This document shows, piece after piece, positions 6,618 through 34,224 of a stretch of 37,562 nt of DNA (the first letter of the stretch is position 1; each line of letters begins with the position of its first letter). The DNA comes from Aplysia californica (Eukaryota): NCBI RefSeq assembly GCF_000002075.1, contig NW_004797526.1, forward strand, positions 484,694 to 522,255, read 5' to 3'. A program made the position numbers and the translations under genes. The notes beneath the pieces are model-generated. The model was not told the origin of the DNA, did not search any database, and was given only the letters and a program-made list of their open reading frames with translations.

Positions 6618-6920
6618 TTTTTGGGTCGTTTTTTTGGGTTAGTGTTTCACAAAGCTCGCAACTGCATAATAAGGTCATATAAACGGGCGGGACACACCAA
6701 TTTTCAATTGGTAGGAAATTTTGAATTTTGCCCGGGTGGCGCCCGAAGCCTACTCTTATCAATTTTAGACCACAACTTGCACATGATCCCTCCGAGATTT
6801 TTTGCCCTTGTCCAAGAAGGCTAGGTGTAGATCTTTCCTACCAGAAAATCAGGGGTGTGGCGGAATAGTAGCAGTAAGAAGGAGCCAAGGAGTAGTAGAA
6901 ATAGAAAGGCTGCTGAGAGT
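6618..6920 (-). mobile_element. SINE-like retroposon body and tail (same family as 9700-10025)
   Basis: Reverse complement aligns with 9700-10005 (shared blocks gagtaggcttcgg, ttcctacca, ctagccttct, cttggctc.ttcttactgct). T-rich tail at about 6618-6640. Confidence 0.75.
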
Positions 6921-7452
6921 ATGTCCAATCCATCACCACACCGCCTACTTCCTACCTCACCTCTGACTTGGATCTGTCTTAACACTCCCTCGTTGGTGAC
7001 CCTGTCTGTCCATCTGATCCTCAGTAACTTTCTTAGAGACTTGCTCAAGAAAACCTGGATCCTCTTTATGAAAGTCTGTGATACATTCCATATCTCAAAT
7101 CCATACAACAGGCCTGACTTCACATTTGAATTGAAAATCCTCAGCCTTCTGTCGAAGTGAGATATCACGGGTCTTCCAAATCCTATCGAAAGATATGAAA
7201 GCAGCTTACGTTTTTCCAATGCGGGACTTTATTTCAGCACCTGTTCCTCCCTCTCTGTCAATTATACACCCAAGATAGCAGAAGGATTCAACGTCTTCTA
7301 GAGCATTTCCTTCTACTCTGACCCGCTCCTTTTGTTGTGCATCTGTCCTTGGGACCTTTGACTTTCCGGGATGGGTCCTCAATCCAACAGACTCTGATAG
7401 GCTGCTTAATACTGAAGTCTTTGCTTGCATCTGTTCCTGAGTGTGTGACAGA
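6920..7452 (-). mobile_element. RTE-clade LINE ORF2 fragment (RT C-terminus), frameshifted
   Basis: QMQAKTSVL...GLRTHPGKSK...LEDVESFCYLGCII...EIKSRIGK and LRIFNSNVKSGLLYGFEIW...LRKLLRIRWTDRVTNE are typical RTE-type post-RT motifs, split over two frames. Confidence 0.9.
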
Positions 7453-9699
7453 AGTGGTAGACTGGTAGAGACTATAAAGACAAACTGTGGCCAGCCTTAG
7501 TTCATCTTTCTGTTTTGTGCAATAACCATGTGCAGCGACAAAAAACAAGTGGCAACCAAATACATGTACAGCTCCAGCTGAACTGTAGCTCAATACAAAC
7601 TGAAAATGTCTGCTGGATCAGATGCTAAGCCATAATGTGTCAAGGACCCAATATATGTACTGGGTGGGTTTTTTTCTTCTTTTTCTACCCTATACCCTGA
7701 GCGTGAGTCCTCACCATATAGAAGCAAAAGGTTCACAGGTGCCTTCCAACCTTTTGGTCATCGGGCTGATGTCAGGTGAAGCCAGATATTTTGACAACAG
7801 GCCAAGGTGACGCAGTTCCTTTTCAGTTTTTCCTGGCCATTTTAAAATTTAATTCCATTATTATTTATTTTATATTTGCCATAGCCTAAAAATAATAGCA
7901 TTTGCGTAATCAGGAGCAAATCGACGACAACCTCAAAAAAGTGCTGAGCTCGCAGAGACCTGAGTGGGAAAAAGATGATAATCAAGCAACCACCTATGGG
8001 GGCTGTGTAGCGTGTGTATTGTACCTCTGGCGCCATACAATTCAGACGGCAGATGGCGGTGTGAAGACGCAAAAATTTATTTATATAGAGGCATCCTTTT
8101 CATACATCGGCAAAACCTGGCGGTAAGCTGGGTTGGCGGTACACAGCGCGGGGGGGGGGGGGGGGGGGGGGGCGCGGTATAATAAGATTTGACTGTAAAA
8201 GGAATGCTCCTATTGTAACTCATTCAACACACTTCCAGAAAAACTATGTTATATATGTGGGTTTCGTGTTACACCCAAGCACTGTTCGAAGCCTTCAATC
8301 AGCTCTGTGAAAATGGACAAAACCTACTTGACAAAACAGGATAAATGAACTGACACTGAAAGTTGTAGGGTTAAAAAATATCAATCATCAATCACAGTAT
8401 GAACCACCACAAAACCATCCTAATTTACTTTTAGCTAACTGTATGAAAATAAAAGGATGAATTATTTGCACATGAATTTCTTCTGAAATAGACAAAAGAG
8501 AAAGTAACTTTGATAACTTAAATGCAAAGATTGATAACTATTTGCAATTTGCTTTGATGAGCTTTATTATCTCATATTTTTTTTACAAGAAAGAGCATAA
8601 TACAATGAACATTTTTGGCAGACATACGTCTGTATGAACTTCATCTGACAGAGTTATATACAATTGTTTGTTTTACATCAAAATTTGAATAATCAGAGAA
8701 TCCAAAGAGTGAAAGACATAAAATGTTTTAAGACAGGATGATGCCTGCGAAGTCAAGCCTTAACGCTTTCCTTCTTATTTGCAAATCATTTCAACCACTC
8801 TTGCATTACTAGTTTTTTAAAGCAGCAAGCAAAATGTAAAAGCAGAGTTTCGTCGAGGCATAAAAATTCATTCGCACAGTGCTGAAAAGGACAAGCTTGC
8901 ACATGTCATCTGAGCGGGCATCTATGTCTATAAGTGACTAACAAACATACACACAGACTGTTTGCTAGACTAAAGAGCAGAAAATCGACACAATGATCAT
9001 TTAGTGCCGGAAAAGAGCAAGACGGATTTTTTTAAAAACCAAACAAACAAACAGAGAAAGTAAAGAAGTAAGACCTACCAGCGGTGTCTTCCAATAACCA
9101 GCAGATAAACATAAAGAAAGACAAACAAAAATACAAGGGGGTAGAGAGAGAGCCAAACAAACATTTCTGAAAACAAAAAGTATGCATGCACAAACAGGTG
9201 CATTCATTGAATTGATTTTAAAACAAACACTCAAATATTTTAGAACTACCTAAGATTCCCCAACATTCCAGCATTTCACAGACTAAGAGATGTATCTTCA
9301 ATTTCTTTGATCCCTTTTTCCAATGCTTGAGACTGAAAACAGTACAACCTGAATAATTGTTTTAGAAAAATAGAAAGTGCACCCTGTTTGACTTGACAGA
9401 GCACAGAGAAAAAACGGGTTGAGGTAAACAGATATTGTGATATCACTGAAATGGGCAACAGAGGAATTATTTCCATATGGTGGACAACCCATGAAGTGTT
9501 CCCAGGGGGCTCTCATGGTTTAGTGTTCACCTCACATTCAATTGGTCTCAGGTTCAAAACTTGAGAGCGACGGAAATTTTTTTTCTCTAAAATGTCCCCC
9601 TGTCATCTCCTTTCCTGCTCCTAACCATGTTCTGTTGTCTGCTTTCATCTTCATTTTCTGCCTCCCCCCCCCCTTATTTTCCCCCTCCTCTGGGTTCCT

Positions 9700-15695: not shown

Positions 15696-16090
15696 TCAAC
15701 TTGCATCCTCCTGCGCCGGCAGAGACACAATCACCTGAACAACATGATTCTTAGGAATTTTAGCATCCTCAATGCGAAGTTTGTCATTGAGCAAGCGGCC
15801 TGCGTAGAACCACCGCTGTCTCTGAGGCTCAACGCCCACCTGCATCTCGGCAATGCGTTTCTTCAGTTTTAGCACAGAGTCTGTGGAGGAGACTTGCAGT
15901 TTGATATCGTGGCTAAGATTTGACAGACGAAAACGAATGGGCTGCTCCACCCCGGGCGACAGGTTGGTGTCTGTGTCTGGGGCAGTGTCACTTTCACTCG
16001 CTTCTTCGATGAGGTTCACAGGCGCACTCAGAACATACTCAGGCAACTTGTATCTGTTACCCAGCTCATCATAGCAATCTAACAGGGTAC
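15696..16090 (-). CDS. UBTD2: UBTD1/2-family coding exon 3 (end of the UBD plus the C-terminal ubiquitin-like domain, stop TGA)
   Basis: GTLLDCYDELGNRYKLPEYVLSAPVNL...QRWFYAGRLLNDKLRIEDAKIPKNHVVQVIVS. Acceptor tttttttcattcttcag|. Exons sum to 79+237+395 = 711 nt, i.e. 236 aa plus stop. Confidence 0.97.
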
Positions 16091-16174
16091 CTGAAGAATG
16101 AAAAAAAAAATGGAAGATATTTCTGTATTCTCTCAAGACAGGTAAAACCATCCAGCATGACCAGATTTTTTTTT

Positions 16175-16720: not shown

Positions 16721-17471
16721 AAGTACTCTACTGAAGTGAATAGTTACAGAAAAGCCAAGCACTATGCAACCACCCATTGCAGTATTATCTATAAAACTAA
16801 AACAAAAGGGGGAGGGGGAATTTGAGACTGTTCAACACTGCACTGTCACAGCTGTCTGTAAACATTTCCAGGGGCAGACGGAACAACTCTTTATATGTCG
16901 CATTTCATGACTATGACATCTACCTTCATGTTTTTATTGTTGATGTTTTATCAACATGATTCAGATAATTTTGGAGACAGGCTGCTTTGACCCTGCCTAT
17001 GATGGCCCATCCCGCCTGAGTGGGATACAACATCCCAGCAGATAGAGATACTCAATAAAGAACTTCCTCACCAGAGAATCCCAACTTCCATCTTCAAAAG
17101 CAAAGAAAATAACCTTTACACCACATGCCAGTACTATCAAACTGTCAAGCCTGGGGAGCATGAATTCATACCCCTAGACAACATGCTACACCCACATTGA
17201 GATGCAAAAACCTTTTACGGACTACATAATTTCTTTTTCCCTCTTTACATTAACTTATGTCCAGGAATCAAAGATACTATCGTTTGACAGTCACTAATCA
17301 TCTAAGCCTGAAATGTGTCTAATGAGCTTTATCTAACCGTAAGCTCAATAGAATCACTGGTCTCCTTAAATTTTGTACAGCATTTCAACAAAAATTTGTC
17401 TTATAAAACGAAGAATTTAATTTCACAACTGAACAAAATGCTGAAAAAACAGCAGCAGTTCTTCGCCTTAC

Positions 17472-17708
17472 CATGTGGTAGTGATATGCTTGCACCATCA
17501 ACAATAGCTTGAGCCATAGTGTGATCTCCAGTTTCCAATGCATAAGCTGCAGCTTTGAGAGCATCCCAGATTTCTTTTCTGCCATCAAAAGCAGGAGCTG
17601 TGTCCCAAAACTCATCACGTTTACTTTTCAACTGCCCTTCAGTCAAAGGGACATCGTTCTTCCATCTAGGTTTTTCTGCTTTCAAAGGCTGATTGCGTCC
17701 CACAGAAA
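17472..17708 (-). CDS. UBTD2: UBTD1/2-family coding exon 2 (DC-UbP/UBTD N-terminal ubiquitin-binding domain)
   Basis: [55 protein letters not shown]...ISLPHG is the hallmark UBTD sequence. Acceptor ttgcag|, donor G|gtaagg, phase 1/1. Confidence 0.97.
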
Positions 17709-18369
17709 CTGCAATAGGCAACAATGTGTACGTTTCAAAGGTTCATTCAATATGACACAAACAAAACAAAATCATGTCAAACAGCCGTAACTGGTCGTTT
17801 TTCAGTAGCAGATATAGGCCTACATCTCTGGTATCTCAGCTGAAAATGTTACACAAAATGATTGCAAAAGTAACATTCACATATATATGTACAGCAAAGA
17901 CTATATCTAAGCAGAAAGAGGGATAGTCTTCCATTACCTGCATGTTTTATTCACATTTGATGAATATGGGTCATAAGGTAACGGTTAGGGTGAGGGTAAG
18001 ATTCGGCTAGTGGGTAAAAATTTTACTTTCACTCCCGCACACAGATACACTGCTTTCGAAGGTCAAGTGGCTATATTTTTCGCTACAGATCACACATATT
18101 GTATAATAGTATAATTAATAGCCATTAAAACTGATGCAAATCAATTATTTCAAGAAATGTCAACACTTATTGCAAAACATCAAGGAGGAAAAACAAGGGG
18201 GCGGGGCATGCCCGCTGTTACCCCCAATTTTTTTCCCTCGGGGGCCCCTGAAACCCCCCCCCCCCCCCCCCCCCCCCCCCCAGGATTGGTCCAAAACATG
18301 GAAATTGCTAAACAATTTGACTTAGCATAAATATAATTCATTTTCATGCAGTGTGTCTTACACACGGAT

Positions 18370-26500: not shown

Positions 26501-26620
26501 TATATATATGTGTCAGCTTTGAATCAAAACTTCCCTGAATGATTTTGTTTCAGGTTTTGACCACACCGGTGCTGACTGGAGAAAAGTCCTTCATGGTCTA
26601 AATTCTAAAGCATTGTCAGT

Positions 26621-26853
26621 ATGGAGCCATCAGTTCAACGCAGTCTGTCACAGCGGAGAGACTCTGGGGTCTCCCTGAACAAACTTGTTATTCCACCTTT
26701 GGATACATCCCAGGAAGTTATTGTTGTTCCTTCTGGAATTCCGAGGGATAAGCATGAAGAAGTTGTGGAAGAAGGTAGAGAGCTGTTCACAAACTTTGTA
26801 TCGAGTGAAATTCAGAGGGTTCCTAATTTCTCCTACGAAGATATTCCGTTGCG
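26621..26853 (+). CDS. Bcl-2 family BAX-like apoptosis regulator, coding exon 1 (N-terminus and alpha1)
   Basis: ORF MEPSVQRSLSQRRDSGVS...VVEEGRELFTNFVSSEI... ends at a strong phase-2 donor CG|GTGAGT. An upstream acceptor (gattttgtttcag, 26551-26553) implies a 5'UTR intron. Confidence 0.8.
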
Positions 26854-27372: not shown

Positions 27373-27490
27373 GACTCCACCAGGATACAAAGATCCTTTG
27401 TGGGCTAAAACAGGCAGAGACTTGCGACTTATGGCAGATGACTTTTCAAAAACTCGTGGGAGAGCGCAAGTGCAGAGAAGAGCTGAGCAG
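27373..27490 (+). CDS. BAX-like gene coding exon 2 (BH3 motif)
   Basis: TPPGYKDPLWAKTGRDLRLMADDFSKTRGRAQVQRRAEQ contains a BH3-like LRxMADDF. Acceptor ttttctaag| (phase 2 matches exon 1), donor CAG|gtatat (phase 0). Confidence 0.88.
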
Positions 27491-28866: not shown

Positions 28867-29091
28867 GTGGGAACAGATGTCACCTTTGAACAGTTCCATG
28901 ACTTGTTGTCTCAGATCTTCTGTGAAGGGGGAATAACCAGAGAAAGGATTGTTGTGCTTTTTTTTTTCTGCTCGGATGTGGCTATACAAGCTCTCCGTGC
29001 TGGCAAAAACTTGTTCATGACTTTTCTCAACTGGTCCCTCACTTTTATTTCTGAGAAGATCTGCACCTGGGTGTACCAGCATGGTGGATGG
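28867..29091 (+). CDS. BAX-like gene coding exon 3 (BH1 and BH2)
   Basis: VGTDVTFEQFHDLLSQIFCEGGITRERIVVLFFFCSDVA...WVYQHGGW. Long polypyrimidine acceptor. The donor TGG|gtaagt falls directly after the BH2 GGW, the intron position conserved in BCL2/BAX/BAK genes. Confidence 0.93.
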
Positions 29092-29909: not shown

Positions 29910-30020
29910 GGTCAAGTTGTGGCAAAGCCATTTAATTCCGTCAACAAATTCTTCCTGTGGGCAGCAGTGGTTGGCTGTTTATTCCTTCTATTCCGTTACT
30001 ACAGGAAGAAACTTCTTTGA
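29910..30020 (+). CDS. BAX-like gene coding exon 4 (C-terminal transmembrane tail anchor, stop TGA)
   Basis: After the acceptor tttttacag|, phase 0 gives GQVVAKPFNSVNKFFLWAAVVGCLFLLFRYYRKKLL*, a hydrophobic helix followed by a basic tail typical of mitochondrial/ER tail anchors. This frame is not in the ORF track. Total CDS 687 nt, i.e. 228 aa plus stop. Confidence 0.9.
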   Translation, partial: GQVVAKPFNSVNKFFLWAAVVGCLFLLFRYYRKKLL

Positions 30021-30954
30021 CTTTGAAGAGAGGCAGCAATGGTCATGGTCTAGGAGGAGGATTGAGATAACCCTCGGAAAACAGAACTGGCTATGTCGTG
30101 TCATAATATAGAGTTTCCTGGGGAAATCAGGGGTGAAAATGAAACAATATTTTTGTACAAAAATATAGCTTTAGAATATGGATTAGTAATACATTGCCAG
30201 AAATATCATAACAGGAAGGAATCGAAAGGTACATGATTTGATAGTGGAAAAAGAATTACAAATTAGTATCATCAATATTTTTAGTAGTAGTGGTACTGAT
30301 TTTGTTTTTTGAGAGGCTATATGCTCATTTCCGGGAAAATGTCACGCTTGCCTTGAAGGATATTCACCCTTACAGTTAGCTTTTGGTTATCAAAAGTGAT
30401 CAAGGGTTAAAGTTTATGAAAGTTGATAACTGAATGCCTTTAATGAAATATTGAAGACCTTTACTGCTGTCTCATTTGATCATGTTGAAAATACATGTAC
30501 TATTATAACCAATGCATTCTGACGAAAAAGTATTTGATCTCATTAGCAAAATGGCAGAAATCATTGATTGATTTAACATACAATATCAACTAATTAAAAC
30601 AGATCACTATTTTTCTTCTTAAAAAAAAAACCCCCAACTTTTTAAGGCGGCCAGGACTTATAGATTTACTTGCTGGCAGAAGAAAGTTTTCAAAATGATA
30701 TCAATTTTGCAGTGGGCTATACAGCATTAGTGTAATTGTTTGTTATTTTATTCAATTCTAGAATATTAATACTAATAGATACATTGTTAAAAACTAGTAC
30801 TGGGTAATGTGTGAACCTGGTTGATGTATTCAATCGATCAAAGCACACTACGTTGTTTGGACCGGAGGAAGTTAAAACTTTGTTCTTTGAAGAGGGTTTT
30901 ATTTGGAGCCAATATGATACGAGTCGAGATTATTTACCACAGGAGTGACTTTCT

Positions 30955-31130
30955 GTTTTTGTTTTAGTAAGAGTTTTACGGCACTTGCAACACAATAGGC
31001 CGTATAAGTGCCGAAGATTAGAGGTGTTACAAGAGAGTAACAAACACAAAAAAGAAGGAGGGGAGATAGGATGATAGATGTTGGGTAGGAAAGAAGGAGC
31101 TAACTGCACCAGAGCACCCACCAACCTCCC
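30955..31130 (-). repeat. Interspersed retroposon 3'-tail repeat, copy 3
   Basis: Homologous to 16175-16295 and 16490-16720. The minus strand ends in a ggcactt...aagtgcc stem-loop followed by an (aaaac)-type tail. Confidence 0.78.
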
Positions 31131-31398
31131 ATTTTGTTTCTGTTTGTGAATTGAGATTATTTAGTGGCATGAGATAACATAGTTAACAATAATGGTTTTT
31201 ATTTTTCCGAGGCCAGATTGTAAACAGCGAAAAATATTATAGTACAACAGGTTTTTGGGGATTTTTTGCTTTGCGGAAAACATATTTTCAGGTGTCAGTC
31301 TTACATTGATGTCCTCTCAGATATGAAAAGACAAGAAGCACATGTTTCATGTATATGGGCGTTCCCAGTCTTTTCAAAAGACATATCTTAGTTTCATA

Positions 31399-32765: not shown

Positions 32766-34224
32766 TGTCCCTTAACATTAGACAATCGTTGCTAAATAAC
32801 AGAAGGCAGCATTGAAACTCCATTTTTCCACCAACTTCATATTTGTTCTTAGGCTGGATGTACAAAGGGTTTGACTGTGTTCTTTTTAAAAATATTTTTC
32901 ATCAAGTTCAAATGTAAATGCATGCAGCTGGAACAAAGGTTCTTGATTGACATTGCAGTGAAAGAGACAGATGGGTACATCATTCCCCAGCCACAATCCA
33001 TTATGTCTGTAGCCATCAATAATCATGGACAATTCTATTGTGGGGGCAGATTGTCACTACGTAGTTTTGTCAAGACAAAATCATTTTCAAACTTGTGAGT
33101 TGCTGCAGTCACAGCCAAACCCTCGCCTCATGTCAAAGCAACAATTTGACAAGTGAATGTTATAGTTTCTGAGACCTTTAGATTTAAAAGACATATATTT
33201 TTTTTACTGACACAATGATTGAAAGCTTTGTTGGTTGTAACAGTTAACACTTTGCGATCACTTGGCATAATAATGCGCCGATGAAAATTATCCGTTCAGG
33301 TCACCTGGCGCCAGACCCGAGAAGTCCGTTGCAGTCACTCTCCTGGCTGGGTGACCAGATGGAGTATTTTGTACAGCTGTTTCGGTCTAAGTGATCCGTG
33401 TCCTGTTTTGGCAATGCCTGCCTGAACTCAAGAACATGAGTTTCTTTGACTGCTTGTTTGGCAGTTTGAGGTAGATTCTCTTTCTCTTTTTGATCTTTTA
33501 CCAGAAATTTCTCAAAAATGTCCATATCAGATTTCCCAACTTCAGTCAACTGCAAATTTGGAACATAAGCAATTTGGCTAGTCGTAAGTTTTACTTTGTA
33601 AAGTTGTAAAATTATATTTCCTATATTCCCGAACAATTGTGTAGTCAAAATATGCCATGTGACTCATTTTTGTCTTATTGCCACTTTACATAGAACTTTG
33701 ATAATACGAACTTCTCAGGACTAGAAAATTTCTTCGTGTTCGTCAGATTTTGTGTTTAAAAAAGTTGCTATGCATAGAATAAAGAGGGGAAAAAATACAC
33801 CCAAAAAACGGGGATTCTTTCATGATGACAGGAATTTTGTACCAAAAGGCTTCATGTTATGACAACTCTAAAAAGTCTAATCTGTCCCTGTGGTTATAAT
33901 ATGCACCCAGCTTAATTTAGCAAAATTTGATATTTTTTTGCGTAATTTCTGATTATTTTCCTTTATCATTCTTTGTTAAAATTAACAGAATTCGCATAAT
34001 TTCACTTTTTTGGCTCAGTGTGCATAATTTCAAAATGTTTCTTGCATAAAACGAAGGGGACAATCTAATGCATTTACTTCTAGTCAAAATGCTCATGAAC
34101 AGTTTGGATGCTTGTTGGGTAGGTGTCAGTTATTGCAGTTTTACATTTACTGCTCTCGGAATTGCTTCTATATTCTGTAAGTGTGGGTGTGGTGTTCATA
34201 ATTATATATACTTACTCAAATTAA

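Follow-up and report, generated by a model that had tools for sequence, protein, structure and literature searches.

A BAX-labelled Aplysia protein with TRER at the BH1 site: a possible groove-closed BH3 donor from an old paralogue of BAX

Replacement of the BH1 glycine, G145 in BCL-2 or G138 in BCL-xL, reportedly disrupts binding of a BH3 helix in the groove. Natural losses of this residue are also on record. The BH1 motif of mouse Boo reads SWSQ; the protein does not bind BH3 motifs, and reversion of the change restores weak binding (PMC3542614). In Trichoplax Bak the motif is SWRR, again without the Gly (PMC8998228), and in cells lacking both BAX and BAK this protein releases no cytochrome c; its role is that of a sensitiser (PMC7527217). 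A BH1 without Gly is therefore no novelty, which lowers the surprise of the case described here.

Oyster work had found no BH3-only protein in molluscs as of 2017, according to the accessible text of PMC5550854. Mollusc proteins have been placed in BAX, BAK, BOK and pro-survival groups, with extra "Bax" copies or unassigned sequences besides (PMC10959488, PMC11463336), and three Biomphalaria "Bax" accessions are listed in PMC10959488. In their accessible parts neither of these papers defines the group of proteins considered below, which we call the TxER clade after its BH1 motif; the motif is absent from the searched text of PMC11463336, which did not include the BCL-2 sequence table. The open text of PMC7022251, PMC3847314 and PMC7456325 holds nothing on the clade either. 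No description of it was found in the literature within reach, subscription papers and bioRxiv supplements lying outside; clade members may already stand in published trees as "Bax".

The TRER gene and its sequence record

The stretch of Aplysia californica DNA that was analysed (the window, 37,562 nucleotides, along which all positions are numbered) carries a four-exon gene with an open frame of 228 residues (Table 1). All introns are of the GT-AG type, with phases 2/0/0, and the last lies directly 3′ of the GGW codon, an intron position described as family-wide (PMC8998228). The product is identical to XP_005100743.1 (P0002), annotated in A. californica as "apoptosis regulator BAX". It scores 51.2 bits against Pfam PF00452 (cut-off 31.4). 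The segment 28927-28980 (+) of the third coding exon translates to GGITRERIVVLFFFCSDV, in which the codons ACC AGA GAA AGG specify the BH1 motif. In an alignment to mouse BAX (5W62), T141, R142, E143 and R144 correspond to N106, W107, G108 and R109 of BAX, V147 to A112 and D154 to K119. The LRLMADDF segment matches the BH3 signature (Leu, small residue, Asp, hydrophobic residue at h4), and the hydrophobic tail reaches a Kyte-Doolittle mean of 1.87 over 19 residues; the tails of its relatives exceed 1.6 in 69 of 84 rows. Thus, the alignment of TRER with NWGR on which the earlier note was built is correct, and so is its description of the gene as intact, with open frame, BH3, BH2, post-GGW intron, tail and GT-AG joints all in place.

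Table 1. Coordinates of the TRER gene and its features within the window
Feature	Position	Strand	Remarks
First coding exon	26554..26853	+	ATG at 26621; encodes the disordered N-tail, helix 1 and a loop; the spliced X7 contig covers 26554-26852
N-tail motif RRDSGVSLNKLVI, residues 12-24	26654..26692	+	basic-kinase-type Ser with docking-type hydrophobic run; function putative
Second coding exon	27373..27490	+	TPxxY loop motif, helix 2 (BH3), helix 3
BH3 core LRLMADDF, L95-F102	27422..27445	+	Ala where BAX has Gly
Arg108, helix 3	27461..27463	+	near-invariant clade mark; predicted partner of Asp154
Third coding exon	28867..29091	+	helices 4-7, BH1 and BH2, last codon of GGW; both sides spliced in X18 and X5
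BH1 TRER in place of NWGR	28936..28947	+	Glu143 (28942-28944) at the BAX Gly108 position
Asp154, helix 5	28975..28977	+	BAX Lys119 position; invariant clade mark
BH2 WVYQHGGW	29068..29091	+	phase-0 intron of the family comes next
Last coding exon	29910..30020	+	helix 8, then the tail anchor (about 29937-29993), a basic end and the stop; in the X7 contig 29090 is joined to 29909, the contig extending to 30209

The structural model of the TRER protein (pLDDT 85.8) has the BCL-2 fold, with eight helices; helix 5, near whose start the motif lies, begins at residue 142. Its best fold matches are BCL-xL and BCL-2 (for BCL-xL, Z 17.1 and rmsd 2.4 with 142 aligned residues). When compared with full-length BAX monomers, the TRER model aligns over 152-160 columns, or over 181 at an rmsd of 8.5; a model of the canonical Aplysia BAX, itself of low confidence (pLDDT 66), aligns over 177-189 columns with an rmsd of 4.4-6.1 (ranks 1-7). 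The shorter match of the TRER model hints, weakly, at a helix 9 lying outside the groove.

The motif letters are identical in five of five public contig runs (X7, X1, X15, X18 and X5). The contigs of X7, X18 and X5, from three studies, show splicing at the joints expected from the gene model; those of X1 and X15 are unspliced, and the assembly itself may have been built from them. The NWGR-like codons by which reads or cDNA might have betrayed an assembly error, as the earlier note had it, were looked for, and all five runs read TRER. Almost no depth was seen over the coding exons in three polyA read sets, all of one study, so that expression was not seen in those samples, and none of the listed holders of the sequence is recorded as RNA. 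The spliced X5 contig has an in-frame 9-base insertion at window position 28984, in helix 5 just past Asp154, possibly an allele or an assembly slip.

Elsewhere in the window, on the minus strand, 15699-16100 and 17455-17742 are exons of a ubiquitin-domain gene (Pfam UBD, ubiquitin) that lies upstream of the TRER gene in divergent orientation. Also on the minus strand, 33304-33663 is an exon-like open frame with no confident Pfam match, and 6824-7496 holds frames that look like the last part of a LINE-type reverse transcriptase, with a weak DUF6451 match. A repeat at 30856-31200 has very deep polyA read cover, due to reads from many copies elsewhere, and poly-A loose ends at 31053.

Clade membership and relation to BAX

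Searches with the motif-bearing exon returned 16 and 275 relatives, the best 150 of the 275 being listed. The 161 aligned rows count the query twice (P0001, P0002) and contain a spurious repeat protein of 3183 residues (P0041). Among these listed matches Gly occurs at the BAX Gly108 position in none and Glu in 130. Full-length rows (at least 190 residues, starting with Met) number 130, of which 85 are non-redundant at less than 70% identity. In the latter, position 141 is T, S, N or D in 82; position 142 is variable, with R in 38, Q in 14, K in 9, S in 6 and W in 4; position 143 is E in 70, H in 5, T in 3 and another residue in 7, never G; position 144 is R in 70 and K in 6; and Val stands at the BAX Ala112 position in 65. 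This pattern indicates that the exchange of Asn for Thr is conservative, that the Trp position is free to vary and that loss of the Gly is universal. A helix-cap role has been described for the BH1 motif (PMC3542614). All three substitutions pointed out in the earlier note (N>T, W>R and G>E) are therefore real but of unequal weight, the first being a conservative helix-cap change and the second falling at a freely varying site, which leaves G>E as the telling one.

Named members of the clade come from gastropods, bivalves, a chiton, nemerteans, an annelid, hemichordates, echinoderms, a scorpion, mites, spiders, copepods, springtails and three insects; no cnidarian, sponge or chordate is among them, most matches carrying no name. 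The insect members, from a beetle (P0144), a lacewing (P0124) and a thrips (P0081), have TYER, TWER and TQAR at BH1, the place of the Trp being taken by an aromatic residue or by Gln, which means that some insects hold a BAX-related gene of the TxER clade.

The best-conserved marks of the clade, Asp154 and Arg108, sit outside TRER. Asp154 is found in all 85 non-redundant rows and in 130 of 130 full-length ones; Arg108 follows with 83 of the 85, then Ala115 (81), Ala99 (78) and Cys152 (77). The pattern F-x-[STAC]-D-[LVI] occurs in 200 of 209 clade rows versus 0 of 15 canonical BAX rows. In the model Arg108 is part of helix 3 and Asp154 of helix 5, both groove helices, and the two may form a buried pair that staples the groove. 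At the BH3 site, position 99 is Ala in 78 of the 85 rows, and position 100 is Asp in 49 and Glu in 17; the full signature with Asp is present in 44 of the 85 members, or 61 if Glu is allowed. The canonical mollusc BAX rows have GD in 10 of 15, the other 5 having no BH3 match. The LxxxAD of the clade presumably resembles the BH3s of the BAD/PUMA type. Arg93 and Arg96, within BH3, occur in 71 and 84 of the 130 full-length rows. A search of solved structures with the BH3 exon (phmmer) gave nothing at E 10, and one with the N-tail gave no useful match.

In the N-tail the pattern RRx[ST]x(1-4)LxxLx[ILMV] occurs in 31 of the 130 full-length rows, against a shuffle mean of 0.035, and in 17 of the 85 non-redundant ones, against 0.012, these 17 being from molluscs, nemerteans and echinoderms; outside this pattern the N-tail of the clade is unconserved. 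We take the motif to be a predicted basic-kinase site joined to a MAPK-docking run, in the manner of the HePTP-type kinase-interaction motif. TPxxY precedes BH3 in 32 of 130 full-length rows, versus 2.6 in shuffles; TPxG is present before BH3 in canonical mollusc BAX too.

Eight PF00452 matches were found in the Aplysia genome, the TRER gene among them. A canonical BAX with FNWGR is encoded by L007 and L010 (protein P0203), and NWGR is present in 15 of 15 canonical mollusc-type BAX rows. Judged from their translations, L003 is BCL-xL-like and L004 MCL-1-like, both with NWGR, L006 is BAK-like and L008 BOK-like; L009 is the remaining match. Only the GGW intron coincides between the TRER gene and the canonical Aplysia BAX gene, the intron after helix 5 being absent from the former, and the two proteins are about 22-23% identical. 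In a tree built without the four motif columns, 18 members form one clade with 98/99 support and four canonical BAX proteins stand apart (97/96). A 43-row tree under a mixture model again recovers the clade (95/88), with a divergent Aplysia paralogue (L002) inside it and L008, represented by a single 49-residue exon on a long branch, outside. The trees contain no vertebrate or cnidarian rows. An AU test did not reject forced grouping of the TRER protein with canonical BAX (p 0.151), long branches come together and the outgroups consist of partial exons, so that the trees do not fix the branching order between subfamilies. When the clade profile was run against the PDB, the best 11 matches were all BAX; both BOK and BAX clusters are represented among the atlas neighbours of the TRER protein, and the atlas structure search returned low-TM bacterial rows only.

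The presence in the same genome of a separate NWGR-bearing BAX with other introns indicates that the TRER gene is an old paralogue and not a mutant BAX. In this respect the earlier note, which had treated the protein as a variant of BAX, must be revised, as introns, the unconstrained trees and the FNWGR gene all speak for a paralogue beside canonical BAX. Several of its other expectations hold up: TRER marks an invertebrate subfamily that is conserved and non-canonical (none of 85 members, from many phyla, has the Gly) and that the phylogeny it called for recovers as one supported clade even with the motif columns removed, the change is common to many phyla and hence not private, and relatives are indeed filed as BAX, the Aplysia entry being a case in point.

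Other members of the family in Aplysia also depart from the BH1 consensus. The paralogue L002:1492-1716 (G000:C426:467789-468013) is very divergent but shares the 75-residue exon and its splice phases with the TRER gene; at BH1 it has LEEDIIVMFYFCLDL, where the Arg too is lost, and it forms a long branch inside the clade. BAK-like L006:1525-1713 has SWSR at BH1, also without Gly, near the motifs of Boo and Trichoplax Bak. L009:1501-1749, another BCL-2-like exon, scores less than the Pfam cut-off; it has SWDQ at BH1 and GGF at BH2 and is unplaced in the tree. Finally, the tail-anchor exon of canonical BAX occurs twice: a further copy, L012:3666-3731, sits in an intron of the canonical BAX gene and is 77% identical over 22 residues.

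Proposed function and alternatives

We propose, with somewhat less than even confidence, that the TRER protein, whose clade is an old invertebrate paralogue of BAX, is a tail-anchored, groove-closed BH3 donor. Glu143, where BAX has Gly108, and Val147, where BAX has Ala112, would crowd the groove, and pairing of Arg108 with Asp154 would staple helix 3 to helix 5; we count the loss of Gly in 85/85 members and the Val in 65/85 for a closed groove. Without a receptor groove the protein would neither be switched by BH3 ligands nor form BH3-in-groove dimers of the BAX type, and it likely cannot form pores as BAX does. Its helix 2 (LRLMADDF) could dock in the grooves of the two NWGR-bearing paralogues, BCL-xL-like and MCL-1-like; the survival proteins being thus tied up, canonical BAX of the same genome would be freed and death would ensue. 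Phosphorylation at the conserved N-tail motif, or at the TP site before helix 2, might provide the control, this being the most speculative step.

The donor reading is favoured by the Boo and Trichoplax Bak precedents, by the BH3-dependent binding of a tick protein and by the reported absence of BH3-only proteins from molluscs, which in the accessible text of PMC5550854 leaves the role of sensitiser vacant. A BH3 donor had already been suggested in the earlier note, and the Trichoplax precedent and, weakly, the published tick data lend it support. A supported clade apart from canonical BAX, and a genome with canonical BAX, BCL-xL-like and MCL-1-like genes of its own, also speak for this reading, as does, weakly, the shorter match of the TRER model to BAX monomers. 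The tick protein is RhBax of Rhipicephalus haemaphysaloides, whose primers are given in the supplement of PMC8336254. They translate to a TLML/SDLILKSV junction across the deleted BH1 and to the C-terminus GVVFYIWKNW. The match is to P0156, a clade member from Varroa, and covers both flanks of BH1 as well as the C-terminus. Judged by these primers, RhBax likely belongs to the TxER clade. It bound RhBcl-2 and the interaction was lost without BH3; a BH1 deletion was tested alongside (PMC8336254). Binding to Bcl-2 would then go through BH3 and not BH1, with the caveat that deletion of BH1 would unfold the protein.

Several observations count against a BH3 donor. BH3 ligands are described as having an absolutely conserved Asp (PMC3542614), yet only 49 of the 85 members have Asp at this site and 44 the full signature. 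Knockdown of RhBax in ticks left feeding and TUNEL rate unchanged (PMC8336254). Arg144 and Glu143 are each kept in 70 of 85, and a dead groove need not keep them. A stapled helix 3 could hinder exposure of BH3. The kinase-type N-tail motif is found in only 17 of 85 rows. To these add the phmmer null for the BH3 exon, the AU test, the low confidence of the canonical control model and the near-empty polyA depth over the exons.

The weakness of the BH3 Asp would also be accounted for if the protein had a closed groove and took no part in BH3 signalling, being either a membrane scaffold outside the BH3 network, engaged in kinase docking or in calcium or organelle control, or else a survival factor that BH3 proteins cannot switch off. 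CED-9 G169E is reportedly a gain-of-function allele and would offer a parallel for such a BH3-proof survival factor. That the best-kept residues (D154, R108, A115, F149, F151) are core or staple-like is consistent with this explanation, as are the conserved N-tail motif and the description of ced-9(n1950), whose residue is not given in the accessible text, as a constitutively active missense allele (PMC5270663). So are the unchanged feeding and TUNEL rate of ticks upon RhBax knockdown (PMC8336254) and the want of an overt phenotype in the boo knockout (PMC3542614). However, RhBax requires its BH3 for binding RhBcl-2 (PMC8336254), the TRER protein retains the full BH3 signature, and by sequence the clade is nearest to BAX. 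On balance we regard a BH3-silent protein as somewhat unlikely.

Conservation of Arg144 and Glu143 would also fit a protein that is still a pore former, with a groove that accepts a changed BH3 (namely the one in its own helix 2, where Ala replaces Gly and the flanks are basic) or with a BH3-independent way of permeabilising membranes. Arg93 and Arg96 are common in BH3, the aromatic residues of helix 5 are kept, and D100 and R144 tend to occur together (46/3/24/12; Fisher p 0.0016). This co-occurrence ranks only 4th of 38 comparable columns, tracks overall divergence and, counted on supported branches, comes down to 3 independent pairs (median p of the sign test, 1), so that covariation of D100 and R144 was rejected after these controls. 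Moreover, Thr-x-Glu at the start of helix 5 fits plain helix capping equally well, and a canonical BAX exists beside the TRER gene in the genome; a rewired effector appears improbable.

That TRER reflects an assembly error, a pseudogene or a private neutral change in BAX is refuted for practical purposes, since five runs agree and three are spliced, the motif type spans many phyla and canonical BAX is a different gene, the near absence of exon reads from three polyA samples of one study being what speaks for it.

A bolder form of the BH3-donor proposal can be considered, which we judge unlikely when taken as a whole. In it the clade would be an unrecognised subfamily as old as the protostome-deuterostome split, mislabelled "BAX" and composed of kinase-switched, tail-anchored BH3 donors with a sealed groove; it would supply the missing BH3-only-type trigger of molluscs and would have been the real subject of some arthropod "Bax" studies. 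Recognition of the clade would correct a spreading annotation, by which a whole group is called BAX though probably lacking the groove of BAX, and at least one functional study, that in the tick, likely used a clade member as BAX. If the TRER protein is a BH3 donor, it becomes a candidate for the mitochondrial death switch in molluscs, reported to be without BH3-only proteins.

Comparison with described BCL-2 proteins

BAX, the best sequence match among solved structures, shares with the TRER protein the layout of helices 1-8, BH2, the GGW intron and the tail anchor. The two differ in having NWGR versus TxER, LxxxGD versus LxxxAD and Lys versus Asp154, and in helix 3, which is longer in the TRER protein and contains Arg108. 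BCL-xL and BCL-2, the best matches in fold, are yet only about 20% identical to it; the TRER protein lacks their NWGR receptor groove, and the genome has a BCL-xL-like gene of its own. RhBax was handled as an ordinary Bax, and its BH1 change is unmentioned in the accessible text of PMC8336254. A Paracentrotus lividus protein named "BCL2L8" (P0015) is a clade member by alignment and tree; a literature search found no paper on BCL2L8, and the name suggests that a member had already been catalogued by someone.

Mouse Boo/Diva (BCL2L10) provides a natural case of BH1 Gly loss that abolishes BH3 binding (PMC3542614). Unlike the TxER clade, which keeps the Arg and BH3 and spans many phyla, Boo has lost the Arg too, and its change is at the level of rodents; BCL-B is described in the same paper as having no recognisable BH3 (PMC3542614). 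The functional model for the present proposal is Trichoplax Bak (trBcl-2L4), which combines a multi-motif fold with loss of the BH1 Gly and is a BH3 donor and not a pore former (PMC8998228, PMC7527217). It differs from the TxER clade in belonging to the BAK lineage, in keeping the Trp, in having Gly replaced by Arg and not Glu, and in having a BH3 with GD (PMC7527217); the likeness drawn here, to a protein absent from our trees, is one of motif and of proposed function. Should the TRER protein prove to be a BH3 donor, it would be the second case of a folded BCL-2 protein turned sensitiser.
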